Notes under the pieces: model-generated
What the model saw: the letters and a program-made list of their open reading frames with translations, nothing else
Databases searched by the model: none
Told to the model about the DNA's origin: nothing
Shown: in pieces, positions 1 to 64,000 of the stretch
How positions within the stretch are numbered: the first letter of the stretch is position 1
Layout: every line of letters starts with the position of its first letter
From: Elusimicrobiota bacterium
GTDB taxonomy: Bacteria > Elusimicrobiota > Elusimicrobia > UBA1565 > UBA9628
NCBI GenBank assembly: GCA_027452025.1
Contig: DAIDHI010000086.1
Coordinates: forward strand, 15,294 to 79,293
Length of the DNA: 64,000 nucleotides
Reading direction: 5' to 3'
Position numbers and translations under genes: made by a program

Positions 1-493
1 TGCCCGCCGACAGGATGGAGATGGAGTTGTTGATGACGGTCGCGACCGGATTGGTCGACGGCGTGATCGCGGCGACGACGCCGAAGGGGGCGTATTCGAC
101 CAGGGTCATGCCCTTGTCGCCCGTGAAGGCCTTGGCCTGGAGGTCCTCCACGCCGGGCGTGCGCAGCGCGCAGACGAGGTTTTTCTGGACTTTGTCCTCG
201 GCGCGGCCCATGCCGGTTTCCTCGCGCGCCAGGCGCGCCAGGCGCTCGGCGTTGGCGACGGAAACCTCGCGCATGGCCTTGATGATCTTGCGCCGGACCT
301 CGAGGCCGAGGTCCTGGAAGATCTTCTGGGCGCGCGCGGCGGCCGAGACCGCCGAGTCGACGCTCGAGTGGACCACGGCGTCGCACGTCGCGGCGTCGGG
401 CGCCGCAGCGCCGAAGGACGGCTTGAGGCCCTCGGTCTGTTCCAGGCGCTTGAGCACCTCGCCGACGATGCGCGCGATCTCCTCGGTCTGCAT
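1..493 (-). CDS. CoA-acylating aldehyde dehydrogenase (PduP/EutE-like), 5' part only (N-terminal ~164 aa; gene continues left of window)
   Basis: Minus-strand translation from ATG at 491-493 reads MQTEEIARIVGEVLKRLEQTEG...GDKGMTLVEYAPFGVVAAITPSTNPVATVINNSISILSAG. The VAAITPSTNP/ISILSAG region is typical of BMC-associated acylating aldehyde dehydrogenases. The ORF track misses it because no stop lies inside the window. Start sits 3 nt downstream of the EutN stop. Confidence 0.75.
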   Translation of the reverse strand, partial: MQTEEIARIVGEVLKRLEQTEGLKPSFGAAAPDAATCDAVVHSSVDSAVSAAARAQKIFQDLGLEVRRKIIKAMREVSVANAERLARLAREETGMGRAEDKVQKNLVCALRTPGVEDLQAKAFTGDKGMTLVEYAPFGVVAAITPSTNPVATVINNSISILSAG

Positions 494-496
494 GGA

Positions 497-811
497 CTAT
501 TTCCTCTCGACCGCGGCGTCCTCGCTCTTCTTGAACACGCGCTTGCCGCCCTGCTCCACGGTATCGACGATGGCGAAGATCACGGCGTCGACGGGCGTGT
601 TGCTGGTCCGGGTCGTCTGCCGGGCGCTGGAGCCCTGCACGAGCAAGACCAGCTCGCCTTCCCCGGCGCCGACGGCGTCGACGGCGACCATTGGGTTGCC
701 CTTGGCCCCGCCGGAGAGGTCGACGGCCTGGACGAGCAGAAGCTTGGTGCCGACGAGCTTCTCGTCCTTGAGCGTGCAGACGACGTTGCCCGTCACTCGG
801 GCAAAGATCAT
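497..811 (-). CDS. Bacterial microcompartment vertex protein (BMC-P; EutN/PduN/CcmL family)
   Basis: 104 aa, MIFARVTGNVVCT...KLLLVQ...AVDAVGAGEGELVLLVQGSSAR...VDAVIFAIVDTV aligns along its length with EutN/CcmL family sequences. Confidence 0.85.
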   Translation of the reverse strand: MIFARVTGNVVCTLKDEKLVGTKLLLVQAVDLSGGAKGNPMVAVDAVGAGEGELVLLVQGSSARQTTRTSNTPVDAVIFAIVDTVEQGGKRVFKKSEDAAVERK

Positions 812-825
812 AAGCGTCGCCCCGC

Positions 826-1122
826 TTAGCGCTTGCGGTTGAGGGTCTCGGGCAGCGAGATCGGCATCTTGCCCTCGAGATCCGGGTGCGGCTGCGGGAT
901 GACGTGGACGGCGACGAGCTCGCCCACCTTCTGCGCGGCGGCCCCGCCGGCGTCGCAGGCGGCCTTGCAGGCGGCGACCTCGCCGCGGAACAGCACGGTC
1001 ACAAGACCGGTGCCCACTTTCTCGTAGCCGACGAGCCTGACGTCGGCGGCCTTGACGGCGGCGTCGGCCGCCTCGACGCAGGCGACCAGCCCGCGCGTCT
1101 CGATCATACCCAGTGCGTTCAT
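826..1122 (-). CDS. Bacterial microcompartment hexameric shell protein (BMC-H; PduA/EutM/CcmK family)
   Basis: 98 aa, [57 protein letters not shown]...[10 protein letters not shown] is a near-canonical Pfam00936 BMC domain. Confidence 0.9.
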
Positions 1123-1141
1123 GCTTTCTCCCCCTTCGGCT

Positions 1142-1774
1142 TCAAACGATGTACGCCAAATCGCCCGTCTTGACCCCGGCGGCGTAGGCCTCGTCGGTGT
1201 CCAGGTGCAGCTCCAGCGAATATTTGTCGGAGACGCGCGCGATGCAGTCCTCGAAGATCGTGGAGCGCCCGCCGCCCGTGCCGCAGCGCAGGCGCAGCAG
1301 CTCGCCGCCTTTTACGCCGATGGCGGCCGCTTCCTTGGGCGCGAAGTGGACGTGGCGCTGCGCGACGATGACGCCTTCCTTGAGCTCGACTTGGCCGGCG
1401 GGGCCGATCAGCAGGGCCCCGGCCGAGCCCTTGACCTGCCCGGACTCGCGCACGGGCGGGTTGACTCCCAAGATATGGGCGTCGGTCCAGGCCAGCTCGA
1501 TCTGCGTGTGGTCGCGATACGGCGCGACCAGGCGCACTTTCTTGATCGAGCCCCGCGGCCCCTTGACCTCGATGGTCTCGGCCGCGGCCCAAAAGCCGGG
1601 CTGCTTGATGTCCTTGATGCGCTTGGGCTCGGCGGAAGCGCCGAAGAGGATTTTAAAATGCTCCTTGGTCAGATGGCAGTGGCGATTCGAGACGCCGATC
1701 GGAATGGGGACTTTGTTTCTCTCCATGCGCACCTTGAGCTCGGCGGCGATCTTGCCGGCGAGGTCCTCCGCCAC
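1142..1774 (-). CDS. pduL: Phosphate acyltransferase PduL-like (phosphotransacylase of BMC metabolosomes)
   Basis: 210 aa; the PduL signature [14 protein letters not shown] lies in the N-terminal half, with a second related half (AQRHVHF, 210 aa is the usual length for a two-repeat PduL). The N-terminal amphipathic helix [15 protein letters not shown] precedes the catalytic domain. The start overlaps the tpiA stop by 1 nt. Confidence 0.85.
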
Positions 1775-2553
1775 TATTTCGCTCCCGCAGGCGCGTTGAA
1801 ATGCATGATCCTGAGGAAGGACTGCGCCTTGAGGCTGTCGCCTCCGACCAGGGCGCCGTCGAGGTCGGGCTGGGCCATCAGGGCGTCGACGTTCTCGGCC
1901 TTGACCGAGCCTCCGTAAAGGATGCGAAGGCCCGCGGCGAAGCCCTCGCCGTAGAGCCTCGCGCAGGTCTTGCGGATGAAAAGATGGGCCTCCTGGGCCT
2001 GGTCGGGCGTCGCGGTCTTTCCGGTGCCGATCGCCCAGACCGGCTCATAGGCGATCACGACGCGGGAGAGGTCCGCCGGGGCAAAGCCCTTGAGGCCGCC
2101 TTCGAGCTGCGTCTGCAGGACTTTGAAGGTCCTCTGCTCCTCGCGCTCCTGGAGGGTTTCGCCCACGCAGACGATCGGCATGAGCTCGGCCGCGAGAGCC
2201 GCCCGGAGCTTCCTGTTGACGGCCTCGTCGGTGTCGCCGAAGAGGCGCCGCCGCTCGCTGTGGCCGATGACGACGGCTTGGGCGCCGGCGTCGACGAGCA
2301 TGCCGGCGGAGACCTCGCCGGTGAAGGCGCCTTGCGCCTCCCAAAACAGGTCCTGGGCTCCGAGCTTGACCGGGCTGCCCTTGAGGACCTGGGCGACGAC
2401 GGAGACGGCCGTGAAGGGCACGCAGACGGCGACCTCGCCGGGCGCGCCGGCGCAGCCGTCCTTGACGGCCCGGGCCAGGTCCACGGACTGGGCCAGGGTC
2501 AGATGCATCTTCCAGTTTCCGGCGATGAGGGGACGGCGCAGAGGGGATGTCAT
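1774..2553 (-). CDS. tpiA: Triosephosphate isomerase, first gene of the BMC operon
   Basis: 259 aa with IAGNWKMH, GHSERR and AYEPVWAIGTGKTAT motifs. Confidence 0.9.
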   Translation of the reverse strand: MTSPLRRPLIAGNWKMHLTLAQSVDLARAVKDGCAGAPGEVAVCVPFTAVSVVAQVLKGSPVKLGAQDLFWEAQGAFTGEVSAGMLVDAGAQAVVIGHSERRRLFGDTDEAVNRKLRAALAAELMPIVCVGETLQEREEQRTFKVLQTQLEGGLKGFAPADLSRVVIAYEPVWAIGTGKTATPDQAQEAHLFIRKTCARLYGEGFAAGLRILYGGSVKAENVDALMAQPDLDGALVGGDSLKAQSFLRIMHFNAPAGAK

Positions 2554-2706
2554 AAAATCGTCAAAGTGTGGCCGTTTTGGCCACAGGGCGCTCCGTCGGG
2601 AGCGGACAGCCGATTCTAGCGCTTGGACAGCGCTCTGTCAACATACAAAGGAGACCGGAACGGCAAGCGCCGAGCGGCGCCGGGCGTCCGTCAGGAGGCT
2701 ATGCCG

Positions 2707-3315
2707 TCAGCCCGCGATGGAGTAGTCGGAGTAGGGAATCACGACTTCCCCCAGCGTCCCGGGATGGTAGTCTTCCTTAGAAAGCGCCTGCGGGCTGCGC
2801 CGCACCCGGATCGGGAAAACGTGGGCCTGGCGCGCGGCCTCCATGTCGGAGTCGCTGTCGCCGAAGAACAGGAGATAGTTGCCGGCCCGCAGCAGCTGCA
2901 GGCGCGCCCCGGGGTCCTTGGCGAACAGGAACCGGCCGGGCGGGATCAAGTGGCGCCAATCCTTCTTGAGGCCGCCGGCGTCGATGGCCGGGCGCGACGT
3001 GATCACCGCCACCCGGAAGCCGAAGAGGCGGAACGTCCAGGCGAGGAGATAGGGGACGACTTGCGGCCGCTCGACGTCGTAGGACTTGTTGACGATGGAC
3101 CAGAAGGCGTCGGAATAGCGCTGGACCGGGCTTGCGAAGGCGCGCTCGTAAGCCGGCTTGGAGAAGACCAGCGTGTCGTCGTAGTCGAAAGCCACGCCGA
3201 AGCGGCCGATCGTCACGACGCTGAAGACCAAGCCCCACAGGCAAAGCGCCGCCATCAGGCGCTTCAACCGCGTCCAATAGAGTTCGGCTTTGTCGCGGAC
3301 ATGCTTAAGGGCCAT
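2707..3315 (-). CDS. HAD-superfamily class B acid phosphatase-like protein (AphA/OlpA-like), membrane-anchored or secreted
   Basis: 202 aa; HAD motif I FDYDDTLVF and motif IV GDSDSD; N-terminal hydrophobic segment LMAALCLWGLVFSVVTI. Confidence 0.6.
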   Translation of the reverse strand: MALKHVRDKAELYWTRLKRLMAALCLWGLVFSVVTIGRFGVAFDYDDTLVFSKPAYERAFASPVQRYSDAFWSIVNKSYDVERPQVVPYLLAWTFRLFGFRVAVITSRPAIDAGGLKKDWRHLIPPGRFLFAKDPGARLQLLRAGNYLLFFGDSDSDMEAARQAHVFPIRVRRSPQALSKEDYHPGTLGEVVIPYSDYSIAG

Positions 3316-4849
3316 GGACTGCCTCCATCGCCGTCGTCTCCGGAGTCATGCGCCCGGACGCCGGCGGCTCGATCGTCGCCTCGCGGCGGGCGCAGTCGGC
3401 GAGCATGTCGCGCCACAGCAGGCGGGTGAAATCCTTCTTCTCGGAGCGGGCGAAGGCGGAGTAGCCGTCGCCGCCGCGCACGAGGAAATCGATGGTCGAG
3501 ACGCGATACGACGCGCGCGCATCGAGAGGCTTGCCGCCGATGAGCACGTCGCGGACCCGGTGTCCGCGGGGGGCGCCGCGGTCGTAGCGCAGCGTCACGC
3601 CGGAGACCTGGATCATGCCCTTGTCCCTGTCGACGCCGTGGTCGAGCATCTCTCGCACGAGCTTGCCGTCCATCGTCAGATTGGCGGCGTAGTTGTCGAA
3701 GGGCATGATGTCGTAGATCGCGCGCAGGGTCACCGGCCCGGCCGTCATGTCGGCGCGGATGCCTCCCGCGTTCTGGACGGCGATATCGGCGCCCGACTGG
3801 GCCCGGGCGCAGTCCGTCATCCAGTCGCCGAGCGGCGATTCCGCGTCGGACTCCCGCTTAAGGTCGCTCGTCGCCGTCGCGATCGCCACGTCGAAGCGGC
3901 GCCGGACCTCGTCCTCGTAGGGCTTGAGCAGCGCGAGGATCCTCGGATCCTGGCCGTGCTCGTCCACCCACAGAGTGATCAGCCGGCCGCTGGAACGCTT
4001 CACCTTCTTGCTCGCGGGATCGATATCGAGCACCACTTGGCCGACGTCCGAAAGGTAGGAGCCCGCCTGGACGATGAGCGTGCCGTGCTTGGGGTCATGC
4101 TGGGGATCGCGCACGAACGTGTGCGTATGGCCGCCGACGATGACGTCGATGCCCGGCACCTCTCGGGCAATCGTCTGGTCGCCCACGAACGGTCCCATCC
4201 TGGGACTCTCGTAGCCGACGTGGGTGACGGCGATGATGACCGTGGCGCCTTCCTTGCGCAAAGCCCTGACCTGCCTCTTCGCCTGCTCCACCTCGCCGCG
4301 GAAGCGCAGCCCGCGAATGTTTTCCGGAAACTCCAGGCCGCGCATGGCCGTGGTCAGCAGGCCGAAGATGCCGATCTTGACGCCGTCCACCGTCTTGACG
4401 ACGCGCGGCGCCAGGTAAGGCACGCGCCGGCCCGTCTTCTCGCTGTAGACGTTGGCGCCGAGAACGGGCATCTTAAAGAGCGTTACCAGCCGCTGGAGGT
4501 TGGCCTCCCCGAAATCGAAGTCGTGGTTGCCGACTTCCACGGCGTCGTAGCCGAGGGCGTTGAAGGCGTCGACGAGCGAGCGTCCTTTGGAGAGATTGCC
4601 CTCGGGAGTGCCCTGGAACCAGTCGCCGGCGTCGAGCAGCAGCTTGGGCCTCGGGTCGCTCTTGACCACGTTGGAGAGCGCCGCGAAGCCTCCGACGAGA
4701 TCGTCGGGCCTCTTGGAGAACGTCGCCGGCCGCGCCATCACCCAGCCGTGGACGTCGTTGGTGTGGTAGATCACGATCTGGAGGTCGGCGGCGCCGGCGC
4801 GGGCGCTCAAGCCCGCGGCGAGGGCGAAGGCCAGCAGGATGCGCCTCAC
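3305..4849 (-). CDS. Secreted bifunctional metallophosphatase/5'-nucleotidase (UshA family)
   Basis: 514 aa; signal peptide MRRILLAFALAAGLSARAGA; calcineurin-like motifs HTNDVHG, DAGDWFQG, GNHDFDFG, GGHTHT; C-terminal 5'-nucleotidase domain. Confidence 0.8.
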   Translation of the reverse strand: MRRILLAFALAAGLSARAGAADLQIVIYHTNDVHGWVMARPATFSKRPDDLVGGFAALSNVVKSDPRPKLLLDAGDWFQGTPEGNLSKGRSLVDAFNALGYDAVEVGNHDFDFGEANLQRLVTLFKMPVLGANVYSEKTGRRVPYLAPRVVKTVDGVKIGIFGLLTTAMRGLEFPENIRGLRFRGEVEQAKRQVRALRKEGATVIIAVTHVGYESPRMGPFVGDQTIAREVPGIDVIVGGHTHTFVRDPQHDPKHGTLIVQAGSYLSDVGQVVLDIDPASKKVKRSSGRLITLWVDEHGQDPRILALLKPYEDEVRRRFDVAIATATSDLKRESDAESPLGDWMTDCARAQSGADIAVQNAGGIRADMTAGPVTLRAIYDIMPFDNYAANLTMDGKLVREMLDHGVDRDKGMIQVSGVTLRYDRGAPRGHRVRDVLIGGKPLDARASYRVSTIDFLVRGGDGYSAFARSEKKDFTRLLWRDMLADCARREATIEPPASGRMTPETTAMEAVHGP

Positions 4850-5403
4850 GGCCGCGCCGCCCCCAGAGCCTGCGCCAACTCCTCGGCGGCTTCCTGCGCC
4901 GCGTCGGCCGCGTGAGAAAAACGGCGCAGGACGGACTCGCCGGCCAGGCCGCGGACGAAACGGACGTCCGCCCAGGCGCGCGCGCGGGCCTCGCGCTGCA
5001 GCCGCTCGACGTCCCGGGCGGCCCCCTTGGCGCTCGCCAAAGCCTCCTCGCAGGACGCGCCGGGCCAGCCGCGCACGGCCGCTTTCAGGGCGGCGACGCT
5101 GCGCTCGAGGCGCGCGGCCATCGCGCGCGTGCGGCGGTCGGGCTCGACGCCGAAGCGTCGGGCCTCCTCCGCGCAGCGCCCGGCATGGTCGGCGAGGCGA
5201 TCGAGGGCGCGGCAGGCGCTTTGCAGCTCGGGCGGGACGGCCGGCCGGAGAGCGCGCGAGTCCAGGGCCGCCTGGCGGCGGCAGAGGTCGGCGCGGCCCG
5301 CGGCCTGAGCCGAGGGCGCCAGGAAGAACGCCCGAGCGGCGGCGGCGACGGCGGCCGTCGACTCGACGTGGCCGAGCAAGGCGGCCTTGGAGATGGCGGT
5401 CAC
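4846..5403 (-). CDS. Hypothetical Ala/Arg-rich helical protein
   Basis: 185-aa ORF with a GTG start overlapping the asnB stop (GTGA). No recognisable family; the composition could partly be a high-GC artefact. Confidence 0.3.
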   Translation of the reverse strand: MTAISKAALLGHVESTAAVAAAARAFFLAPSAQAAGRADLCRRQAALDSRALRPAVPPELQSACRALDRLADHAGRCAEEARRFGVEPDRRTRAMAARLERSVAALKAAVRGWPGASCEEALASAKGAARDVERLQREARARAWADVRFVRGLAGESVLRRFSHAADAAQEAAEELAQALGAARP

Positions 5404-7262
5404 GGCGCCGTCATTGTACTATTTCGAGCCAGCGACTGTAGCCAAAGGCCCAGGATGGCGGCGCGAAAGAACAGCCCGCTGTCGATGGGCGCGCCGGCGG
5501 CGAGCTCGCGCCGCATGAACTTGAGCCGCTCCATGTCGAAGAGGCCGGCCTGGGCCAAGGTCCGGTCCTCGACCAGGGCGTCGAGGACGGGATTTCGCGG
5601 GGCGCGCACCCAGGCCTCCCAGGGCACGATGAAGCCGTGCTTGCGCCGCCAAACGATGGAGGAGGGCAAGTAGCGCGCCGCCACGCGGCGCAGAAGATAT
5701 TTGCCCTTGAAGTGGCGGATCTTGAAGTCGGCGGGCAGACCGAGGGCGTATTCGACGACCGGAACGTTCAGGAAGGGCACGCGCGCCTCCAGGGAAGCGC
5801 GCATAGTCGACTTGTCCACTTTCATGAGCAGGGAGTCGCAAAGCACCGTGCGCAAGTCGAAGACCAGCGCGTCGCGCAGCCGCCCCATCCCGTCGAAGTC
5901 CTTGAGCCAGTCCAGCGGATCGCCGCGCCGCGACGCCTGCCAGAAATCCGGATGGAGCAGGCCCTGCAGGTCCTCGGGCTGGGCCTCGGCCGTGGCGCGC
6001 GCCCACTGGTGGGCGCTGTCGTAGGGCAGCCGGGAGAAGACCTCCCCTTTCCCCAGGCGCCGAGCCAGCGCCGACGCCGGACCGCGCGTCCAGCCGGGCA
6101 GCCGGCGCAGCCTCTCGTTGAGCCAGGCGGCCTTGTAGCGGTTGTAGCCGGCGAAAAGCTCGTCGGCGCCCTCGCCGGTCAGCGCGACCTTGACCGTCTT
6201 TCGCGCGAACTGCGAGAGCAGGAACGTGGGCAGGATCGCGGAGTCGGCGATAGGCTCGTCGAGAAAGGCGACGGACTCCTCCAGGCGGTCGAGTACCCGC
6301 GCCGGCAGCATGAGCTCGTGGTGCTCGGTGCCGAGGTGGGCCGCCGCCTCGCGCGCGAAGCCCGACTCGTCGACCCCCGAGGCCGCCCCCTCGAAGCCCA
6401 CCGAGAAGGTCTGGACCTTGCGCCCCCCGGCGTGGCGGGTCATGTAGGCGGCCACCAGGCTCGAATCCACGCCGCCGGACAAAAACGCCCCGACCGGTAC
6501 GTCGGAGAGCATCGCGCCGCGCACGGACTCGGAGAGGAGCCGGTCGAGCGTGTCCTCGGCTTGCCCCAAGGTCTCGGGGCGGCGCCCGCCCTCGTCGGGG
6601 ACCTTCCAGAAGCGGGTCAGCCGCAGCCCCGAGGCGTCGAGGCGTAGGAAGTGCCCGGGCGAGAGCTTGAGGACGTCTCGCAGGATCGTGCGTGGAGCGT
6701 GAACCTTGCCGAAGGAGAGGTAGTCGAGCGCCCCCGCGTGGTCGAGCGCGGTGGAGACGCCGCCGGCCAGCAGCGAGCGCAGCTCGGAGGAGAAAAGCAG
6801 GCGCTTGCCGTCGAAGTTGTAGTAGAGGGGCTTGATGCCGATCGGATCGCGCGCGAGCGTCAGCTCCTGCTTGGCCGAGTCCCAGACGCCGACGGCGAAC
6901 ATGCCGACCAGTCGCTTGAAGGCGCCCGGACCTTGCCGCTCGTAGAGGCGCAGGATCGTCTCGGTATCGGCGCGGGTCTTGAACTTGGCGCCCGCGGCCT
7001 CAAGCTCGCGGCGAAGCTCGGGATGGTTGTAGATCTCGCCGTTGAATACGATCGTCAGCCGCCCGTCGTCCGACGACATCGGCTGGTGCCCGCGCTCGAG
7101 ATCGAGTATGGAGAGCCGTCGAAAGCCGAAGGCCGCGCCGCCGCCGGCGAACTCGCCCTCGTCGTCGGGCCCGCGATGCGCGAGCGCGGCGCGCATGCGC
7201 CGCACGGCGTCCTGAGGCGCCGGCGCGCCGTCGACGCTGACCGCCCCGCAGATGCCGCACAT
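5400..7262 (-). CDS. asnB: Asparagine synthase (glutamine-hydrolysing)
   Basis: 620 aa beginning MCGICG (class II glutamine amidotransferase nucleophile), followed by the asparagine synthase adenylation domain SGGVDSS. Confidence 0.9.
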   Translation of the reverse strand: MCGICGAVSVDGAPAPQDAVRRMRAALAHRGPDDEGEFAGGGAAFGFRRLSILDLERGHQPMSSDDGRLTIVFNGEIYNHPELRRELEAAGAKFKTRADTETILRLYERQGPGAFKRLVGMFAVGVWDSAKQELTLARDPIGIKPLYYNFDGKRLLFSSELRSLLAGGVSTALDHAGALDYLSFGKVHAPRTILRDVLKLSPGHFLRLDASGLRLTRFWKVPDEGGRRPETLGQAEDTLDRLLSESVRGAMLSDVPVGAFLSGGVDSSLVAAYMTRHAGGRKVQTFSVGFEGAASGVDESGFAREAAAHLGTEHHELMLPARVLDRLEESVAFLDEPIADSAILPTFLLSQFARKTVKVALTGEGADELFAGYNRYKAAWLNERLRRLPGWTRGPASALARRLGKGEVFSRLPYDSAHQWARATAEAQPEDLQGLLHPDFWQASRRGDPLDWLKDFDGMGRLRDALVFDLRTVLCDSLLMKVDKSTMRASLEARVPFLNVPVVEYALGLPADFKIRHFKGKYLLRRVAARYLPSSIVWRRKHGFIVPWEAWVRAPRNPVLDALVEDRTLAQAGLFDMERLKFMRRELAAGAPIDSGLFFRAAILGLWLQSLARNSTMTAP

Positions 7263-12901: not shown

Positions 12902-13597
12902 CTAGTCCTGGTCGTCGGGTGGGGCCGGGGCTTCCGCGGGGCCTTGAGGCGCCTGCGGCGGGGCCGGCCGGCCTTGCTCGGAGGGCGGGCCGTCCGTGAC
13001 GGGCCGAAAGCGGCTGCGGTTGAGCGCGCCCGCGGCCTGCGCTCCCGGGCGCTCCTCTTGCGGCGGCGCCTCGGCCTTTTGCGGGGCCCGGTTGCCCAGG
13101 ACCTGGCCGTCCGGCAGACGGTAATAGACGGGCAGGCGGGCCAATAAGCGGTCGTAGACCGTCTGCCCGGCGTCCGTCAGGAGGCCGCCGGAATCGAAGA
13201 GCGGCTGGCCGGCCATGTCCGAGAGCCGGAACGCCGTCTTGTATTCGACGTCGCGCGCCTGGAAATAGGCCAGGGCATCCTGCGTGCGCAGGAACAGATA
13301 CTTGTCGAAGCCCTCCTTGTTGAGGACGAGGCGGGCGCGCCGAGTCTTGTGATCGCGCAGGAGGACGGTCCAGGCGCGGATATTATGGAAGCGCCGGTCG
13401 AGATAGCCGCAGGCGTCCTCGGCCTCGGCGCGACGCATGCGCCCGAGCAGCAAAAGCTCCGTCGGCCCGTATTGGTCCTTGTCCGGCGAGAGGATCCGGC
13501 GCTGCCAGAGCTGCGAAAGCACGGAGCGGCCTCCGGCGGCGCGCGCCGCGGCGGGAAGCGCCATCGCCAGGATCAGTATCCAGGCGCTTGGCCTCAT
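12902..13597 (-). CDS. Secreted hypothetical protein with Pro-rich C-terminus
   Basis: 231 aa; signal peptide MRPSAWILILAMALPAAARA; no family recognised. Confidence 0.4.
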   Translation of the reverse strand: MRPSAWILILAMALPAAARAAGGRSVLSQLWQRRILSPDKDQYGPTELLLLGRMRRAEAEDACGYLDRRFHNIRAWTVLLRDHKTRRARLVLNKEGFDKYLFLRTQDALAYFQARDVEYKTAFRLSDMAGQPLFDSGGLLTDAGQTVYDRLLARLPVYYRLPDGQVLGNRAPQKAEAPPQEERPGAQAAGALNRSRFRPVTDGPPSEQGRPAPPQAPQGPAEAPAPPDDQD

Positions 13598-13598
13598 G

Positions 13599-14162
13599 CT
13601 ATTTCTTGGCGAGGATGCGGGGCAGCACGACCCCGACCTGGCTTTGGTACTTGCCTTTGCGGTCCGCGTAGGCGGTCTCGCAGACCTCGGTGCCCTCGAG
13701 AAACAGCAGCTGCGCGATGCCCTCGTTGGAATAGACCTTGGCGGGCAGGGGCGTGGTGTTCGATATCTCGAGGGTCAGATAGCCCTCCCAGGTCGGTTCG
13801 AGAGGCGTGACGTTGACGATCATGCCGCACCGCGCGTAGGTGCTCTTGCCGAGGCACACGGCGAGGATGTTTCGCGGGATCTTGAACTTCTCGACGGTGC
13901 GCGCCAGCGCGAAGGAGTTGGGCGGGATGATGCACTCGGAGCCTTTATGATCGACGAAGGACTTGTTGTCGAAGTTCTTGGGATCGACCAGGGCGCCGTA
14001 GACGTTGGTGAAGATCTTGTATTCGTCGGCGACGCGGATGTCGTAACCGTAGGAGGACAGTCCGTACGAAATCTTGCCCTCGCCGACCTGCCCGTCGACG
14101 AAGGGCTCGATCATATTGTGCTCGCGGCACATCTGGCGGATCCACTTATCGGGCTTGAGCAT
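13599..14162 (-). CDS. dcd: dCTP deaminase
   Basis: [11 protein letters not shown]...YGYDIRV...[31 protein letters not shown] matches Dcd. The internal Met at 14162 is used, because the track ORF to 14243 adds 27 non-conserved residues. Confidence 0.85.
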
Positions 14163-14253
14163 GCTTTTCCCTCGGTCCGGCATCGCCGGTCCCGTCGAGG
14201 ATATCAGCGCCAGATTCTCGCTTTTTGACGGGCTCTCAAGCAATCCACCGCGG

Positions 14254-15420
14254 TCAGGTCCGATTCAAGAATTTTACGGCAAGGGCGGTCACGACGCCCG
14301 CACCCAACAGAGCCAAGCCGGCGTTGGTCCCGGCGGCCGCGGGGATTCCCAAGGCACCGGCGGCCATGGCCAGCAGAAGGAAGGCCATGTAACCGGCGGC
14401 ACCCACCGCCACCCCGAGCGCCCCGGGCAAGAGCCAATCGATCCGCTCGCCGGAGTCGCGCATCAAAAACGGCATCGTGGCGGCTCCCGCCAAGAGATAC
14501 GCCAGAAACACGGGCGAAAGGAAATAGCTCGAGGCCACGAGCAGGGCCATGCCTCCCGCCAACGCGCCGATGGCCGCCCCGTCGATCGAGGAATCTTCGA
14601 ATTCGCCGCGCGTGACAAGAGCGCCGATCAGCGCGCCCAGCCCCATCGCCGAGAACGCAAGCAGGACGCTGGCAAGGCCTTCATGCTGCGCGGCCAGGCA
14701 TGAGAGTTGCTGCGCGAGCTGGGCGAGCGCGGGACTCGCCGACCGGTCCGCCAACAGGCGCGAGGTCATCGCCGCCGGGGCCGCGGCAAGAGCGAAAACG
14801 GACCAGGCCCGCCCGGGAGCCCGGGGCGTGGACGATGAGCGAACCGCCGCGGAGGGGCGAGCCAGCATCGATACCTTTCCCGCTCCAAGCCGGCTCGAGA
14901 CGCCCCGAACCGAGCCGCCCGACTCGCCGCCCTCGCTGACGCGCAGGCCTCGGCCGCCGTCGAAAAGCTCCCGGCCGTCGGGCAGCGCCTGGGAAGCCTT
15001 TTCGGCCGAGTCCGACCCAGCCGCGGCAAAGCGGCGCGGCCGCGCCGGCGCGGCCGCGGCTCGCCCCGGCGCGCCGGAAAACGAGAGCGCGGAAGCGGCG
15101 GAGGCCGCCGAGACCTTGGTCGCCGCGGCGAAGACGCCTCCGGCGGCGCTTCTCGCCGCAGAACCGGCGGCGGCAGTCCCGGGAACGGACGCAGCGGCTG
15201 AGGGCGCTGCGGCGGCCTCCGGCATGGAAGTCATCGGGCTGGACGGCGCCAAGCCTGGATCCGGCAGGGCAAAGCCGAACCCGCTCATCGCGCCCGCCGA
15301 AAGATGGGAAGAAGGGAGCTCAACTCGCGAAGATTCGCCCTCCACGGCGGCCCGCGCCGAAGCGGCTGGCAAGCTCAAAGCGGCGCACGCGATGAAGGCG
15401 AAGAATGATCGTGATCTCAT
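14254..15420 (-). CDS. Secreted Ala-rich protein with C-terminal multi-helix Gly-zipper membrane domain
   Basis: 388 aa; signal peptide [24 protein letters not shown]; C-terminal [23 protein letters not shown] resembles the repeats of the 8499..9443 protein. Confidence 0.4.
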
Positions 15421-15502
15421 GTCCCCATTTTAGGCGCGGGGCCGTTCGGCCGCATGGGCCCTCGGGGAACGCGGCAAAGTCTTCAGGCCTAGGCCGCCGG
15501 AC

Positions 15503-16864
15503 CTACGCTTCGACGTCGGCCGCGCCCCGGCGCCAGAGCCGACGGACCGCCTCGGCGGCCGCATGGCCGCTGACGACGGCGCTTTCGATCGTCGCCGGCA
15601 GCCCGGTCCGCGTCCAGTCGCCCGACCAGACGAATCCCTTCATGCCGGCGCTCGCGGCCCGCGGCCGCAGGGCCTCGGCGCCGGGCACGGGAGACAGCGT
15701 GGCGAAGGGCTCCTTGACGACCTTCCAGCGCTGGATCGTCGCTTTTTGGAAGGCCGGCAGGCAACGGGCGAGGTCGCGCTTGGCCAACTCGAGCAGGGCC
15801 TTGGGCTCCCAAGCCAGAAGCTTGCGCGCTCCGCTGACGACCAACGAAAGATACTGCCCGCCGCCCGCCTCGCCCAGGATCTTCGACTTGTCGAAGGCCC
15901 AGTGGGTCTCCGTGCCGAGCAGGCCGACGAGCGGGACGTCGAGGACCGGGCGGTCGAGCCACAGATTGACGCCGACGATGGGCGCAGCCGCCAGCCGCCG
16001 CCAGGAGCCGAGCAGAGGCTGCGGCAGCGGCAGCTTGGCCAGGTCCCAGGGCGGCAGCGTGGACACCGTCACGGGCGCGCGCAGGCTCTCACCGCCTTCA
16101 AAACAGGCCCCAGCCACGCCGCCGTCCTCCTCCAGGAGCGCCGAGACCTTGCGGGAGAGCAGAACGGCGCCACCGCGCGCCTCGATATAGCGCCGCGACC
16201 CGTCGGTATAAAGGTCGGACAAGCCGACGCGGGACAATGCCAAACGCGTGCTCTCCACGTCGCGGTAGAAGACCTCGCGCAACGCTTGGACCAAGCCCGT
16301 CGCCGAGGCGAGCTCCGGCCGCTCGTTGAGGATGCCCAGGGCGAGCGGGTCGAAGAGCCGCTCCTGGACGCGGGGCGATTGGCCCAGACCGGTCAGCCAC
16401 TCGCGCACCGTCAGGCCGTCGATGGCGTCGAGCGATCCTCCGTCCAGCGCGCGCATCGCGCGATCGAAGCGCCAGAGGCCCGCTTTGTCGCGCAGGGAAA
16501 GCCCGCGCAAGCCGAGAACTCCCGCGGCCAGGTGGAGCGGCGATCCCAGCGCCTGCGGGCAGCGCAGGACGTCGCGGCGGCCGTGAGCGTCGGCGTAGTC
16601 GACGCGGATGCGCGGCAACAGCTGAAGGCAGCCCTCCGTCCCTATGCGCCGCAGGAACGCCCGAGTCTGCCGGTAGCAGCCCATGAACAGGTGCTGCCCG
16701 TTGTCGACGATGGAGCCGGTCTCCGGGTCGCGGAAGGAGAAGGCCCGCCCCCCTAGGTGCGGCTTCTTCTCCGCGACGGCGACGCGCAGGCCCTGCTCGG
16801 CCAGGGCGCTGGCGCAGGAAAGGCCGGCGAAGCCCCCGCCGATGACCAGGGCGTCAAAATCCAT
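15503..16864 (-). CDS. hpnE: Hydroxysqualene dehydroxylase / amine-oxidase-family FAD enzyme (HpnE-like)
   Basis: Starts MDFDALVIGGGFAGLSCASALAEQG (Rossmann GxGxxG). Phytoene-desaturase-like, last gene after two squalene-synthase-family genes. The track start at 17041 is an upstream in-frame extension; ATG at 16864 is used. Confidence 0.75.
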   Translation of the reverse strand: MDFDALVIGGGFAGLSCASALAEQGLRVAVAEKKPHLGGRAFSFRDPETGSIVDNGQHLFMGCYRQTRAFLRRIGTEGCLQLLPRIRVDYADAHGRRDVLRCPQALGSPLHLAAGVLGLRGLSLRDKAGLWRFDRAMRALDGGSLDAIDGLTVREWLTGLGQSPRVQERLFDPLALGILNERPELASATGLVQALREVFYRDVESTRLALSRVGLSDLYTDGSRRYIEARGGAVLLSRKVSALLEEDGGVAGACFEGGESLRAPVTVSTLPPWDLAKLPLPQPLLGSWRRLAAAPIVGVNLWLDRPVLDVPLVGLLGTETHWAFDKSKILGEAGGGQYLSLVVSGARKLLAWEPKALLELAKRDLARCLPAFQKATIQRWKVVKEPFATLSPVPGAEALRPRAASAGMKGFVWSGDWTRTGLPATIESAVVSGHAAAEAVRRLWRRGAADVEA

Positions 16865-17705
16865 GGCAATACAGCCAAGCGCGCCCGGCCAGCCCCGCCT
16901 TGCGCCACCCGGGAACGCGCTCCCGCGGGCCGAAGAGCACGCGAAAGCCGTTTCTCTTGATGCGCTCGAGCAAAGCCTCGTAGATGTGGGCCATGACCTC
17001 GGCGGGCAAGAGAGCCGGGCGGTCCCTGAAGTCGACGGCATTGCGGGCCCGCTGATAGGAGACGCTGGCGCGCTTGTAGAGTCCTTCCATGAGCCGATCG
17101 AAAGCCGGGGAGTGCTCGCGCCGCAGGAGCGCCTCTCGCGAATAGCCGGCCTGGCGCATCTCGGCCGCGGGCAGATAGACGCGCCCGAGCTCGAGGTCGG
17201 CGCCGACGTCGCGGATGATGTTGGTCAGCTGGAAGGCGAAGCCGAAGAGGTCGGCGAACTCCTCGATGCGCTCCCGCGGCGTGCGCTCGCAGCCGAAGAT
17301 GCGTACGCAGAGGCGCCCCACGCTGCAAGCCACGCCGCGCATGTAGGATTCGAGGTCGGCGTAGGTCTCGAAGGCCGCGCCTTCCAAATCCATGGAGCAG
17401 CCCCGGATCATCTGAAGGAACTCCTCCTTCGGCAGCGAGAAGCGCTTGACCGCCGGGGCCAGGCGAGCGGCCACCGGATGGGTCGGCTCGCCGCGGAACA
17501 GGCTTTCGATCTCGGCGCGCCAGAAGTCGAGCTCGGCTCGCGCCTGCTCCTTCGTCCGGTCGCCCGCGTCGACGATGTCGTCGATGAGACGGCAGTAGGC
17601 GTAGACGGCCGAAAGGGCCTCGCGCTTTTCGGCGGGCAGGAACAGGAAGCCCAGGAAGAAGTTGGAGCTCTTCTCGGCTTTGGCCGGCGCCGCCGACGAG
17701 ATCAT
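16854..17705 (-). CDS. hpnD: Squalene/phytoene synthase family protein (HpnD-like, presqualene diphosphate synthase)
   Basis: YAYCRLIDDIVD (Asp-rich motif 1) and NIIRDVGADLELGRVYLP (motif 2). Internal Met at 17705 is chosen so that it overlaps the hpnC stop. Confidence 0.7.
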   Translation of the reverse strand: MISSAAPAKAEKSSNFFLGFLFLPAEKREALSAVYAYCRLIDDIVDAGDRTKEQARAELDFWRAEIESLFRGEPTHPVAARLAPAVKRFSLPKEEFLQMIRGCSMDLEGAAFETYADLESYMRGVACSVGRLCVRIFGCERTPRERIEEFADLFGFAFQLTNIIRDVGADLELGRVYLPAAEMRQAGYSREALLRREHSPAFDRLMEGLYKRASVSYQRARNAVDFRDRPALLPAEVMAHIYEALLERIKRNGFRVLFGPRERVPGWRKAGLAGRAWLYCHGF

Positions 17706-18586
17706 TTCAGCAGCGCGCGCACCGCCAAGGGAATCCAGTCGCCTTTGGACAGCGACGGGCGGCGCGTCAAGCTGTCGTAGTCCTGGTCGCGGATCTTGCG
17801 CAGGACCTGCCGGCCGCCCAGCCACGTCAGGCGGATTTCCCAAGACAGCGGCCAGGAGAGCCGCTCCGGCAGGACGCGGCCTTCTTCAAATAGAGCCCGC
17901 GTGCGGCTGACCTCGAACTTCATGAGGCCGCGCAGCTTCTCGTTGACCACTCCCATGCGCAGGTCGCCCTCGGAGTAGCCGTAGGCCTTGAAGTCCTCCT
18001 CGGGTATGTAGATGCGGTCCTTCTTCAGGTCGACGGAGACGTCTTGCCAGAAATTGGCCAATTGGAGGGCGGTGCAGACGGCGTCGGACTGGCGGAAGAG
18101 CTCTTCGTCGCGGTAACCGTGGATCATCAAGACGATGCGTCCGACGGGATTGGCCGAGCGCCGGCAGTAGTCGAGGACCTCGGCGAAGGTCGAGTAGCGC
18201 TTCTTCTCGGTGTCTTGCAGGAAGGCGTCCAGCAGATCGTCGAAGGGCTGGACGGGCAGACCCAGCTCGCGGAAGGTATGTTCGAGCGCGACGAAGACGG
18301 GATGCGTGGCCGGGGTCTTGCCGACCTGGAGGAGTTGGCGGCGCCAATCGAGCAGGCGCTGCCGGCGCACGCCGTCATATTCCGGCTCGTCGGCGAAGTC
18401 GTCGGCGATGCGGGCAAAGCCGTAGAGGGCGGCGACGTGCTTGCGCAGGCGCCGCGGCAGCAGGCGCGAGGCCACCGGGAAGTTCTCGTAGTGGGAGGCC
18501 GCCAGGTCCTGGCAGAAGCGGTAGGCGGCCGCCGCGTCGGAGGGATCGGACACCGTGGCCTCGCAGGCCCGAAGCGTGCCGGCCAT
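17702..18586 (-). CDS. hpnC: Squalene/phytoene synthase family protein (HpnC-like)
   Basis: LYGFARIADDFADE and ANFWQDVSVDLKKDRIYIP motifs. Start ATG at 18586-18584 overlaps the obg stop by 1 nt (TAATG). Confidence 0.7.
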   Translation of the reverse strand: MAGTLRACEATVSDPSDAAAAYRFCQDLAASHYENFPVASRLLPRRLRKHVAALYGFARIADDFADEPEYDGVRRQRLLDWRRQLLQVGKTPATHPVFVALEHTFRELGLPVQPFDDLLDAFLQDTEKKRYSTFAEVLDYCRRSANPVGRIVLMIHGYRDEELFRQSDAVCTALQLANFWQDVSVDLKKDRIYIPEEDFKAYGYSEGDLRMGVVNEKLRGLMKFEVSRTRALFEEGRVLPERLSWPLSWEIRLTWLGGRQVLRKIRDQDYDSLTRRPSLSKGDWIPLAVRALLK

Positions 18587-19920
18587 TATTTGCCGACCCC
18601 GATGCGCGTGCGCTTGTGGCGCCGGCGAAGCCGATGGAGCGGCGCGTAAGGCTTGTCGCTCCACTCGAACTGGAAGCAGCCGCAGCGCACCTCGTCGCCG
18701 TCTCGGATTCCGGCGCGCTTGAGCGCCTTGTCGACGCCGATCTTCTTGAGCGTGCGCTGAAAGCGGTCAACGGCCTCGGGAAGCGTCGTTTCGAGCATGG
18801 CGGCGGCGCGCTCCACGAAGGGGCCCTTGAGCAGGAACACGCCCCCGCCCTGGGGCTCTACGCGGAAGCCCGGCTCGACCTTCACCCGCGCGGCGCCGCG
18901 CGCGGCCTCCTCGTCGAAGGTCTCGGGCGCGGGATGGCGCGAGAGCTCCTCGATGACCCGGTCGAGCAGAGCGTCCACACCCTCGCCGGTGGCCGCCGAA
19001 ATCCCGAGGACCTTGCGCGCGCGCAAGCGCGCGCGCAGCTTCTTGAGCACTCCTTCGGCGCCCGGCAGGTCGAGCTTGTTGACGGCCAGGACCCTCGGCT
19101 TGCCGGCGAGAACGCGCGAGAAGGACTTGAGCTCGGTCTCGATGGCGCCCACGCCGGACAACGCGTCCTTGTCCCCGAAGCCCGCGGGATCGACCAGATG
19201 GACCAGCAGGCGGGTGCGCTCGACGTGGCGCAAAAATTCCGTGCCGAGGCCCTTGCCCCGATGGGCGCCCTCGATGAGGCCCGGGATGTCGGCGACGACG
19301 AAGTGCACGCCCTTGTGGGAGGCGACCCCGAGATTCGGAGACAGCGTCGTGAAAGGATAATCCGCGACCTTCGGGCGCGCGGCCGTGATGCGCGACAGCA
19401 GGCTCGATTTCCCGGCGTTGGGAAAGCCAACGAGCCCGACGTCGGCGAGCAGCTTGAGCTCGAGCGTGAGAGTGACGCGGTCGCCCGGCGCGCCCTTCTC
19501 GCACAGGCGCGGCGCCGTGTTGAGCCGGGATTTAAAGGAAAGGTTGCCTCGCCCGCCGCGGCCCCCGGCCGCGGCCAGATATCGCTGGCCGGCCTTGTGG
19601 AGATCGGCGACGAGGACGCCGTCGCGAAAGACCACCGTGCCGACCGGCACCGGCACGACGAGATCGGAGCCGGCTTCACCGGTCTTGTCGCCCCCCTTGC
19701 CGTGGCCGCCCGAGGCGGCCTTCAGGTGCGGCCGCTGGGCCAGATCGAGCAGCGTGGTGATGCGCGGCGACGCCTCCAGGAACACGTCTCCGCCCTTGCC
19801 CCCGTCGCCGCCGTTGGGGCCCCCGAACTCGAGATATTTCTCCCGCAGGAAGGAAAGACAGCCGTTGCCGCCGTCTCCGGCGGCAACGTGCACGCGGACC
19901 TTGTCGATAAAGTCCGCCAT
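18586..19920 (-). CDS. obg: GTPase Obg/CgtA
   Basis: 444 aa; N-terminal Obg fold with glycine-rich GGDGGKGG, G-domain GFPNAGKSSLL, C-terminal extension. Confidence 0.9.
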   Translation of the reverse strand: MADFIDKVRVHVAAGDGGNGCLSFLREKYLEFGGPNGGDGGKGGDVFLEASPRITTLLDLAQRPHLKAASGGHGKGGDKTGEAGSDLVVPVPVGTVVFRDGVLVADLHKAGQRYLAAAGGRGGRGNLSFKSRLNTAPRLCEKGAPGDRVTLTLELKLLADVGLVGFPNAGKSSLLSRITAARPKVADYPFTTLSPNLGVASHKGVHFVVADIPGLIEGAHRGKGLGTEFLRHVERTRLLVHLVDPAGFGDKDALSGVGAIETELKSFSRVLAGKPRVLAVNKLDLPGAEGVLKKLRARLRARKVLGISAATGEGVDALLDRVIEELSRHPAPETFDEEAARGAARVKVEPGFRVEPQGGGVFLLKGPFVERAAAMLETTLPEAVDRFQRTLKKIGVDKALKRAGIRDGDEVRCGCFQFEWSDKPYAPLHRLRRRHKRTRIGVGK

Positions 19921-61778: not shown

Positions 61779-62303
61779 CTAGTTAGACGCGCCGCAGCTG
61801 GTCAGCCGGCTGCCGTCGAAAGCCGCGGCGCCGTCCTTGGTCCAGCCCCGGGCGCCGTCTCCGGTCTGCACCTGGACCCACCAGGCGCTCTTGACCTTGG
61901 CCGATTCGCTCGCGTCCCAGATGGGCCGCACCCCATCGACGAACACCCCTTTGTACCAGACCCGCCAGCTGCCGTCGACGAGGGGCCGGACGAGGTAGAG
62001 CGTGGAGCCCTTCGGCATGGGCGAGTCGCCGAATAGGTCGGAATAGGTGACCTTGACCTTGCGAGGACGAACGAAGAGTTCGCTGTCGCCCGCCGTCACC
62101 GTCTCGCCTTCCTTGACGACGGCCGCGACCTTGCGGCCATTGGGCCGGTCGTAGAGACGCACGGCGCGACGAGCCCGCCAGGAGCCGTAGGCGCAGCAAA
62201 GGTCCGGGCACCCCCCCCGCTGCTCGACCACCCTCGGCGGACGGGCCGCGGCGGCCGGCCTGGCCCACAGGACGGCGGCCAGAAGCGCCGCCCCGGAGGT
62301 CAC
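61779..62303 (-). CDS. Small secreted hypothetical protein translationally coupled to pilC
   Basis: GTG start overlapping the pilC stop (GTGA); VTSGAALLAAVLWARPAAAA signal-like N-terminus; 174 aa with CPDLCC motif. It is the 3' part of the 333-aa track ORF. Confidence 0.4.
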   Translation of the reverse strand: MTSGAALLAAVLWARPAAAARPPRVVEQRGGCPDLCCAYGSWRARRAVRLYDRPNGRKVAAVVKEGETVTAGDSELFVRPRKVKVTYSDLFGDSPMPKGSTLYLVRPLVDGSWRVWYKGVFVDGVRPIWDASESAKVKSAWWVQVQTGDGARGWTKDGAAAFDGSRLTSCGASN

Positions 62304-63529: not shown

Positions 63530-63544
63530 GGTTTTCTCCGATGG

Positions 63545-64000
63545 TTAAGCCGGCGTCATCGAGCGCTGCAAAAGCCTCCGAAGGTCCTCGGAATCCAGCG
63601 AATGCGCCGCGACCTCTTGGAACGTGACCCTTTGCTTGCGGTAGAGATCGGCCAGAGACTGGTTCATCGTCTGCATGCCGACTTTGCCTCCGGTCTGGAT
63701 GGCGAGCTGGATCTGCTCGACCTTCTGCTCGCGGATGAGGTTGCGGATGGCGGAGGTCACCATCAAGACCTCGCTGGCCAGCACCCGGCCCGTGCCCGAG
63801 GCATGGGACAACAGCTGCTGGCAGATCACGGCCTGAAGGACGAAGGAAAGCTGGACGCGCACCTGCTCGATCTGGTGCTGCGGGAAGACATCGATGAGAC
63901 GGTTGATCGTCTGGGCGCAGTCGTTGGTGTGCAAGGTGGCGAAGACGAGGTGGCCCGTCTCCGCGATCGTGAGCGCCGCGGCGATCGTCTCCAGGTCGCG
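63545..64000 (-). CDS. pilT: Twitching-motility ATPase PilT, 3' part (gene continues right of window)
   Basis: Minus-strand frame open to the window edge; ...TINRLIDVFP...ICQQLL...TGGKVGMQTMNQSLADLYRKQ matches the PilT/PilU C-terminal region. Confidence 0.85.
   Translation of the reverse strand, partial: RDLETIAAALTIAETGHLVFATLHTNDCAQTINRLIDVFPQHQIEQVRVQLSFVLQAVICQQLLSHASGTGRVLASEVLMVTSAIRNLIREQKVEQIQLAIQTGGKVGMQTMNQSLADLYRKQRVTFQEVAAHSLDSEDLRRLLQRSMTPA

Follow-up and report, generated by a model that had tools for sequence, protein, structure and literature searches.

Sugar-phosphate-utilising microcompartments and the locus under study

The sugar-phosphate-utilising (SPU) microcompartments received their name in 2014, based partly on the presence of a triosephosphate isomerase (TIM or TPI) together with DeoC. 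Subtype SPU1, which was catalogued from 62 loci and is found exclusively in Elusimicrobia (Sutter et al. 2021, Nat Commun 12:3809, Supplementary Data 2), contains an aldehyde dehydrogenase (AldDh), a phosphotransacylase (PTAC), a pfam00121 isomerase, a BMC-P triplet, and pairs of BMC-H proteins with complementary interface motifs, i.e., KAAK/PRPH versus KAA(N/D)/PQPH. Its signature enzymes, pfam01791 (DeoC/DERA) and pfam02502 (RpiB), adjoin two of the BMC-P genes, and in a few organisms the locus is split between two places. TPI is prominent in SPU1 and SPU4, with an encapsulation peptide predicted on the TPI of SPU4 only, and DERA activity has been demonstrated for an SPU6 enzyme (PMC11585597, Commun Biol 2024). 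The published biochemistry concerns SPU6 enzymes, and SPU1 compartments are known from their genes.

We analyzed a stretch of 64,000 nucleotides (the window) from an Elusimicrobia bacterium, and consider it highly probable that positions 1-2641 hold the start of an SPU1-type microcompartment operon, from its promoter and leader through its first five genes. We make this assignment because Supplementary Data 2 of Sutter et al. 2021 describes for SPU1 what is found here in gene content, gene order, host taxon and BMC-H interface motif (KAAD/PQPH). The locus type is already known and, as an instance of SPU1, this operon holds nothing that the catalogue of 2021 and the 2024 paper on SPU loci do not already contain. 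The five genes are:

2553..1774, minus strand: tpiA, triosephosphate isomerase, 259 aa, first gene of the operon (PF00121, E 3e-91, residues 8-251)
1774..1142, minus strand: PduL-type phosphotransacylase (PTAC), 210 aa, GTG start (PF06130, E 2e-64; NCBIfam PRK15070, over cut-off)
1122..826, minus strand: BMC-H hexamer shell protein, 98 aa, KAA(N/D)/PQPH paralogue type (PF00936, E 9e-28)
811..497, minus strand: BMC-P vertex (pentamer) protein, 104 aa, first of an expected BMC-P triplet (PF03319, E 2e-31)
493..1, minus strand: CoA-acylating (EutE/PduP-type) aldehyde dehydrogenase (AldDH), N-terminal 164 codons only (PF00171, E 4e-11; NCBIfam PRK15398, E 3e-52)

Our analysis confirmed these genes to be present where the original prediction had placed them, each with a strong Pfam match, and the shell-like ORFs to be true members of PF00936 and PF03319, a check that the prediction had itself named. 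The matches to PF00171/PRK15398, PF06130 and PF00121 occur in a single, tightly packed string of minus-strand genes, with PF00936, PF03319 and the CoA-acylating aldehyde dehydrogenase all inside 1.2 kb of the same strand. The 1-nt and 3-nt junctions claimed for this string are seen at two of its four junctions, i.e., a 1-nt overlap (TAGTG) that places the GTG start of PduL over the tpiA stop, and a 3-nt gap between the BMC-P and AldDH genes; the other two do not fit the claim, with gaps of 19 nt (PduL/BMC-H) and 14 nt (BMC-H/BMC-P), which are short too. The AldDH gene runs past position 1 (relatives have full-length orthologues of 477-487 aa), so that the operon leaves the window inside this gene, as predicted. 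The BMC-H translation shows VKAADV and IPQPH, in agreement with the SPU1 description, and is 83-95% identical across relatives; the BMC-P protein is 77-88% identical to its same-position orthologues. The tpiA product scores 185 bits against TIGR00419 (NCBIfam cut-off, 131) and contains the motifs NWKMH, GHSERR and YEPVWAIGTG. The NCBI gene call for an identical TPI (P0001, 244 aa) begins at Met16, a start that would drop the NWK active-site segment.

Related loci and the downstream half of the operon

Of 29 loci found through PduL, the 23 with 54-83% identity all belong to Elusimicrobia/Elusimicrobiota MAGs, with the other six at 49% identity or less. The order TPI-PduL-BMC-H-BMC-P-AldDH is present in every one of these 23 genome loci and in several metagenome contigs, the metagenome relatives being at most 76% identical. 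In all 18 loci that reach far enough, the AldDH gene is followed on the same strand by BMC-T, RpiB, BMC-P, BMC-P and DERA, and most of these loci also encode a small protein and another BMC-H. This downstream set was confirmed by Pfam in one relative (L003), and by independent precomputed Pfam calls in another (L088; TPI 82% identical) that shares the far-upstream synteny of the window (dCTP deaminase, L13, S9, AsnB, 5'-nucleotidase, HAD). The second BMC-H paralogue in L003 reads KSAK and PRPH, and the window carries the KAAD/PQPH BMC-H only; likewise, the window holds one BMC-P, with the other two seen in relatives only, adjoining RpiB and DERA.

DERA and RpiB, the signature enzymes, lie outside the visible part of the locus, since the window ends within the AldDH gene. 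The original prediction expected DeoC, an RpiB-like protein, BMC-T and further shell paralogs past this edge, and every sufficiently long syntenic relative carries them; for the present contig we infer the same leftward continuation from relatives with 76-83% TPI and PduL identity. The prediction thus got the missing half of a microcompartment locus right from sequence alone, and the SPU-like, sugar-phosphate reading that it served is supported and can be narrowed to subtype SPU1. One alternative is a split or partial SPU1 locus, in which the aldolase and the remaining shell genes are elsewhere or lost rather than located after the AldDH gene. SPU1 is split into two locations in a few organisms (Sutter et al. 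2021), and the window stops at AldDH codon 164 with everything downstream out of view; against this, the rest of the locus follows the AldDH gene in 18 of 18 relatives with enough downstream sequence, and the closest relatives (L001-L003 and L088) have the long-range synteny of the window, making a split very improbable.

We also weighed a classical aldehyde-handling metabolosome (PDU, EUT, GRM or PVM) with a tpiA gene as a chance neighbour. AldDH, PduL, BMC-H and BMC-P form a generic metabolosome core common to all four of these types, and with the PDU and EUT systems of Salmonella and related bacteria the locus shares the PduP/EutE-type AldDH, the N-terminal encapsulation peptides, and the logic of confining a volatile aldehyde and recycling CoA. 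However, the loci of the relatives carry DeoC and RpiB in place of the classical signature enzymes, and neither in these loci nor among about 50 scanned genes of the window (a subset of its ORFs) did we find a diol dehydratase, ethanolamine ammonia-lyase, glycyl-radical enzyme or class II aldolase, and we rejected this identity as extremely unlikely. In contrast to PDU and EUT, the locus includes a TPI gene and lacks both a B12-dependent signature enzyme and an alcohol dehydrogenase, and the aldehyde would come from a sugar phosphate via a class I aldolase. The prediction set the TPI gene apart from the classic pdu/eut/grp loci; in this operon type a TPI is not unusual, being a listed component of SPU1 and part of the 2014 naming.

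The assignment to SPU1 remains our preferred reading. The likeness extends to the Elusimicrobia host, the N-terminally tagged AldDh, the PTAC/PduL, the pfam00121 isomerase and the KAA(N/D)/PQPH BMC-H and, in the relatives, to the BMC-P triplet with two members beside pfam02502 and pfam01791, a BMC-T that has no PduS partner, and another BMC-H, of the PRPH type; we found no difference in anything tested, for a locus of which the first five genes are visible. With SPU4 of Firmicutes and the other SPU subtypes this locus type has in common DERA, RPI, AldDH, PTAC, TPI and the proposed deoxyribose 5-phosphate route, and SPU1, SPU4 and SPU7 are alike in having no BMC-T(dp) (PMC11585597). SPU4 and the other subtypes differ from it in host phylum and in shell protein clades.

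Encapsulation tags and the role of the triosephosphate isomerase

The AldDH N-terminus, MQTEEIARIVGEVLKRLE, is almost invariant in 14 relatives and is followed by a variable linker of 20-35 aa, a sequence pattern with the form of an encapsulation peptide. A helix that precedes the PduL domain is likewise conserved in relatives, which supports both the GTG start and an encapsulation-peptide-like tag. AldDH and PduL thus both have conserved N-terminal amphipathic helices, as judged by sequence pattern, in line with the SPU1 description. The TPI has no such extension: its TIM domain covers residues 8-251 of 259, a longer ORF is impossible in the window, and 14 relatives share the N-terminus M-x-S-x-LRRPL-AGNWKM and have no conserved sequence before it, the protein beginning 8 residues ahead of the first beta-strand in all of them. 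The TPI of SPU4 differs in its predicted N-terminal encapsulation peptide, which is seen neither here nor in these 14 relatives. Since it has no targeting extension, the operon TPI most likely acts in the cytosol, although it may be encapsulated by other contacts, with which a missing terminal extension is compatible. This contrast between an untagged TPI and helix-tagged PduL and AldDH is a small new point, and offers a further handle on SPU1.

The pathway that we propose follows the published SPU model. Deoxyribose 5-phosphate would enter a shell of two BMC-H paralogues, one BMC-T and three BMC-P, of which one BMC-H and one BMC-P are encoded in the window. The DeoC/DERA aldolase, located past the window edge in relatives, would cleave it to acetaldehyde and glyceraldehyde 3-phosphate; the tagged aldehyde dehydrogenase would convert acetaldehyde to acetyl-CoA, and the tagged PduL would convert acetyl-CoA to acetyl phosphate, regenerating CoA in the shell. 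Glyceraldehyde 3-phosphate would then exit the shell, and a cytosolic TPI would equilibrate it with DHAP, to supply glycolysis, gluconeogenesis or lipid synthesis. The SPU1 locus contains no alcohol dehydrogenase, so that the model leaves NAD+ recycling unexplained.

Whether this TPI is a dedicated pathway enzyme is less clear-cut, since tpiA could instead be the sole housekeeping TPI of the genome, its position at the head of the operon reflecting gene order. This is a serious possibility, to which we nonetheless give somewhat less than an even chance. The TPI is ordinary and full-length, exceeds the TIGR00419 equivalog cut-off, retains all catalytic motifs, has no targeting peptide and is preceded by a near-consensus promoter, and the named proteins among its 120 best homologues are annotated as triose-phosphate isomerase of Elusimicrobia MAGs. 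We found no second TPI, gap or pgk in the 64-kb window (by tblastn for TPI, and by Pfam on about 50 predicted genes), and tblastn found no TPI beyond that of the operon in any of the related loci examined; TPI counts are absent from an Elusimicrobia genomics preprint. Among the genes scanned in the window are those for ribosomal proteins, Obg, ribonucleotide reductase, dCTP deaminase, LeuRS and UvrC, as well as glycogen genes and type II secretion parts.

On the other side, TPI genes recur in SPU loci of unrelated phyla and in other gene orders (for example, between BMC-P and RpiB in L057 and L070), and the SPU4 TPI of Firmicutes bears a predicted encapsulation peptide (PMC11585597); this recurrence and the SPU4 tag argue for a functional link. 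All 23 Elusimicrobia genome loci also preserve the TPI adjacency, even though PduL identity falls to 54%. The dedicated and housekeeping readings are compatible, in that a sole TPI could be functionally coupled too.

Promoter, leader palindrome and upstream phosphatases

Upstream of tpiA is a 153-nt intergenic region with a near-consensus promoter, bearing out the prediction that the operon begins with tpiA. Two elements are present in this region:

2613..2641, minus strand: sigma-70-type promoter, TTGACA-17 nt-TAGAAT, 11 of 12 positions as in the consensus, with its end about 59 nt before the tpiA ATG
2567..2585, no strand assigned: 19-nt palindrome in the tpiA leader, arms TGTGGCC and GGCCACA around AAAAC, candidate operator or 5'-UTR stem-loop

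We found two promoter-like sites in 5.6 kb versus 0.3 expected. The hexamers are present in almost all relatives, with a spacing of 16-18 nt (mostly 17) and located 43-70 nt from the ATG, and 22 of 24 relatives score at least 9 of 12. The palindrome (TGTGGCCAAATTGGCCACA) has arms that are 100% complementary and is the single perfect copy in the 64-kb window; it recurs with at most one mismatch in 23 of 24 related leaders, where the surrounding sequence is variable, and one arm position co-varies from C/G to A/T. As RNA it forms a predicted hairpin (z-score of the whole leader, -4.6), and a scan of positions 1-5600 with E up to 1 gave no Rfam match. A second candidate, a hairpin upstream of the palindrome in the window leader, was set aside as it is not consistently predicted in relatives. 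Extra palindrome copies in more distant relatives were discounted as regulatory sites, being inside the coding sequence of a DUF72 gene (codons V-D-N-M-A-T) that is absent from the window.

The near-consensus promoter belonging to the operon and the conserved palindrome of the tpiA leader make a second small new point. Transcription would start from this strong promoter, with the palindrome the likely point of control via a regulator; the mapped promoter and the palindrome are handles on an uncharacterised SPU1 subtype, for example in fishing for that regulator.

Upstream of the promoter are two further genes:

2707..3315, minus strand: HAD phosphatase, membrane-anchored or exported, 202 aa, AphA-like (class B acid phosphatase; TIGR01672, E 1e-10, below cut-off and so a resemblance only)
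3305..4849, minus strand: exported 5'-nucleotidase (UshA-like), 514 aa, with signal peptide (PF00149 and PF02872, E 4e-36)

The HAD phosphatase translation has a hydrophobic segment at its N-terminus and the motifs FDYDDT and GDSDSD, and its gene is probably a separate transcription unit from the tpiA operon; the 5'-nucleotidase has a signal-peptide-like N-terminus, MRRILLAFALAAGLSARAGA. The pair is located directly upstream of tpiA in 20 of the 21 related genome loci with enough upstream sequence, and its conservation upstream of the SPU1 operon is a third small new point. Conserved exported nucleotide phosphatases give independent, circumstantial support to the idea that SPU compartments serve DNA/nucleotide scavenging. 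We tentatively suggest, as a proposal that is rather unlikely to hold in full, that the SPU1 operon is the core of a wider, undescribed nucleic-acid-scavenging module, in which the neighbouring phosphatases would feed in nucleosides, the palindrome would be the operator of an SPU1 regulator, and the untagged TPI would be the only TPI of the cell. In that case, transcription of a gene for a central step of glycolysis would depend on a microcompartment promoter.

Neither caspase nor nucleotidase appears in the supplementary text of Sutter et al. 2021, and in the text of that paper that we searched we found no conserved promoter or palindrome of the tpiA leader, no upstream 5'-nucleotidase/AphA-like pair and no caspase-domain insertions. 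Among the papers listed by our literature search on caspase-type proteases in microcompartment loci, none dealt with microcompartments as well; caspase-domain insertions are present in the loci of some of the relatives.

A member of the published SPU1 locus type

Our analysis confirmed the five tightly packed minus-strand genes originally predicted in window positions 1-2553, and demonstrated that their junctions, in operon order from tpiA to the aldehyde dehydrogenase, are a 1-nt overlap followed by gaps of 19, 14 and 3 nt.

Genes of the operon in the window
2553..1774, minus strand: tpiA, triosephosphate isomerase (TPI); 259 aa; PF00121, E 3e-91; exceeds the TIGR00419 cut-off
1774..1142, minus strand: PduL phosphotransacylase; 210 aa; PF06130, E 2e-64
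1122..826, minus strand: BMC-H; 98 aa; PF00936, E 9e-28
811..497, minus strand: BMC-P; 104 aa; PF03319, E 2e-31
493..1, minus strand: aldehyde dehydrogenase (AldDH), first 164 codons; PF00171, E 4e-11; PRK15398 (EutE-type), E 3e-52

By profile search, both shell-like ORFs are true shell proteins, contrary to the refuting outcome foreseen in the original note, and the translated BMC-H contains the motifs VKAADV and IPQPH. The public gene call for the identical TPI (NCBI protein entry P0001) is 244 aa long and starts at Met16, which would remove the conserved AGNWKM segment containing the NWK active site; it is the ATG further upstream, at 2553, that is conserved as a start, giving 259 aa.

The interpretation of this region as a microcompartment operon of the sugar-phosphate utilising (SPU) kind with tpiA first is supported, and the locus is an unexceptional case of an already known type, SPU1, which comprises 62 loci exclusive to Elusimicrobia species (Sutter et al. 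2021, PMC8217296, Supplementary Data 2). TPI is prominent in SPU1 and SPU4, and Elusimicrobia are listed among SPU hosts (PMC11585597); tpiA in this operon is therefore an unsurprising, defining ingredient of a known kind of locus. What is new here is the direct inspection of putative targeting signals on AldDH, PduL and TPI, and we regard the palindrome in the leader, the apparent lack of a tag on TPI and the conservation of the exported phosphatases described below as minor additions for future SPU1 work.

Relatives and the remainder of the operon

A PduL scan using one genome per species returned 29 loci, 23 of them from Elusimicrobia MAGs at 54-83% identity. In all 23 of these, TPI lies directly upstream of PduL, with BMC-H, BMC-P and AldDH following as far as each contig extends. 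In one of these relatives, L003, Pfam searches downstream of AldDH identified a tandem-domain BMC-T (183 aa), RpiB (PF02502), two further BMC-P, a DeoC-family aldolase (DERA; 344 aa, with a ~120-aa N-terminal extension), a 96-aa Cys-rich protein, a second BMC-H (motifs KSAK and PRPH) and an 88-aa protein. With tblastn, we could follow the series as far as DERA in 18 loci, i.e., every locus of sufficient length, with the small protein and second BMC-H also visible in most of them. The same gene series is present, by independent precomputed gene and Pfam calls, in the ENA soil contig L088, whose TPI is 82% identical to that of the window and which shares its far-upstream neighbours (dCTP deaminase, L13, S9, AsnB, 5'-nucleotidase and HAD). 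The original expectation that DeoC, an RpiB-like gene, BMC-T and further shell paralogues follow beyond the window edge thus holds in relatives, from which the same genes would be predicted for the window's own genome.

The two small conserved proteins on either side of the second BMC-H (L003 15295-15585 and 15913-16179) have orthologues in most relatives and no Pfam match. The 96-aa protein contains several CxxC pairs, and the 88-aa protein opens with an encapsulation-peptide-like amphipathic helix that leads into a Pro/Ala linker. In L016 (9409-9819), AldDH and BMC-T are separated by an inserted glyoxalase-fold gene (PF00903), and L011, L021 and L024 have a similar-sized gap at this place. 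Some related SPU1 operons also contain one to three caspase-domain (Peptidase_C14) genes, some with PDZ and Sel1 repeats, interspersed among BMC-T, RpiB and the paired BMC-P genes:

L001, same strand as the operon: 13376-15196, 15639-17105, 17704-19167
L004, same strand as the operon: 13140-14969, 15178-16797
L021, same strand as the operon: 15631-18612

The closest relatives (L002, L003 and L088) are without them, and we found no literature connecting caspase-type proteases with microcompartments.

Putative targeting signals and the probable role of TPI

Following the published SPU model, DERA would split deoxyribose 5-phosphate into acetaldehyde and glyceraldehyde 3-phosphate, AldDH would form acetyl-CoA, and PduL would yield acetyl phosphate and recycle CoA, with glyceraldehyde 3-phosphate exiting the shell; the published scheme includes its conversion to DHAP by TPI (PMC11585597). 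AldDH begins with a nearly invariant helix, MQ(T/S)EEIARIV(G/S)EVLKRLE, followed by a variable linker of 20-35 residues, and the PduL domain is immediately preceded by a conserved helix with the pattern DLAxxIAAEIxKRMxRSK, the conservation of which supports the GTG start overlapping the tpiA stop. TPI, in the window and 14 relatives, has just 8 residues ahead of the first beta-strand; in the window the ORF cannot be extended any further upstream, and the domain ends 8 residues before the C-terminus. SPU1 TPI thus carries no recognisable tag, and we infer that it most likely acts outside the shell, a provisional answer to the question left open in the original note, because a protein may also be encapsulated by means other than a terminal peptide. 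This agrees with the published prediction of a TPI encapsulation peptide for SPU4 only (PMC11585597), in contrast to the SPU1 enzyme seen here.

No second TPI (tblastn), and no gap or pgk among the about 50 predicted genes scanned with Pfam, was found within the 64-kb window, and this tpiA could be the genome's sole housekeeping TPI, a reading we consider possible and somewhat doubtful. However, TPI recurs in other SPU subtypes, other phyla and other locus positions (related loci L057 and L070), which argues that its association with SPU loci is selected. A sole housekeeping role would also be compatible with a functional link to the SPU1 compartment.

Promoter, leader palindrome and neighbouring genes

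tpiA is the first gene of the operon, and the 153-nt spacer upstream of it contains a promoter, TTGACA-17-TAGAAT (2641..2613), identical to the consensus at 11 of its 12 positions; the 5.6 kb searched contain two sites of this kind where 0.3 would be expected. Both hexamers are found in almost all relatives, spaced by 16-18 nt (mostly 17) and 43-70 nt from the ATG. A GC-rich inverted repeat (2660-2687) lies just past the preceding gene. Between promoter and ATG, at 2567-2585, is a 19-nt palindrome with arms TGTGGCC and GGCCACA around AAAAC (TGTGGCCAAAACGGCCACA), with no other perfect copy in the 64 kb. Within otherwise unalignable sequence, 23 of 24 related leaders contain it as TGTGG(C/A)CAAnnTG(G/T)CCACA, differing by no more than one mismatch.

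The palindrome is predicted to fold as an RNA hairpin, and among relatives one arm position co-varies with its partner in the opposite arm. In many relatives the symmetry reaches into the would-be loop (AA-n-TT), and the arms are nearly invariant, for which reasons we lean slightly towards a candidate DNA operator for a dimeric regulator. The leader has no Rfam match, no regulator gene is conserved near the operon, and we found no mention of palindrome or promoter in the two SPU papers cited above. Further copies occur inside a DUF72 gene ~3.5 kb upstream of tpiA, at codons V-D-N-M-A-T (L004 5639-5657 and 5330-5348; same places in L005-L009, L013-L018, L020 and L024), using AAT and ACA codons, whose use we would presume to be infrequent given the GC content. 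These copies could be fortuitous or could form a second binding site; the window lacks the DUF72 gene, and L088 the internal site.

Directly upstream of tpiA, on the same strand, are two phosphatase genes:

3315..2707, minus strand: AphA-like HAD phosphatase; motifs FDYDDT and GDSDSD; hydrophobic N-terminal anchor; TIGR01672 E 1e-10, below cut-off
4849..3305, minus strand: UshA-like 5'-nucleotidase; signal peptide

Of 21 related genome loci having enough upstream sequence, 20 have the pair ahead of tpiA, and the genes beyond it differ between two groups of relatives. The intervening promoter suggests that tpiA is transcribed separately from the pair. The proposed DNA/nucleotide-scavenging role would be in keeping with exported nucleotide phosphatases encoded next to a deoxyribose-phosphate compartment, a link through synteny only.

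Within 20 kb of the locus, the window also contains dCTP deaminase (13599-14243) and a TSCPD-domain ribonucleotide reductase (20714-23239), deoxynucleotide metabolism genes that are probably plain housekeeping. At the right edge (62300-64000, minus strand) are a T2SSF type II secretion/pilus gene and the first part of a T2SSE ATPase gene; in relatives, the gene directly downstream of the SPU1 operon is another, PilT-like T2SSE.
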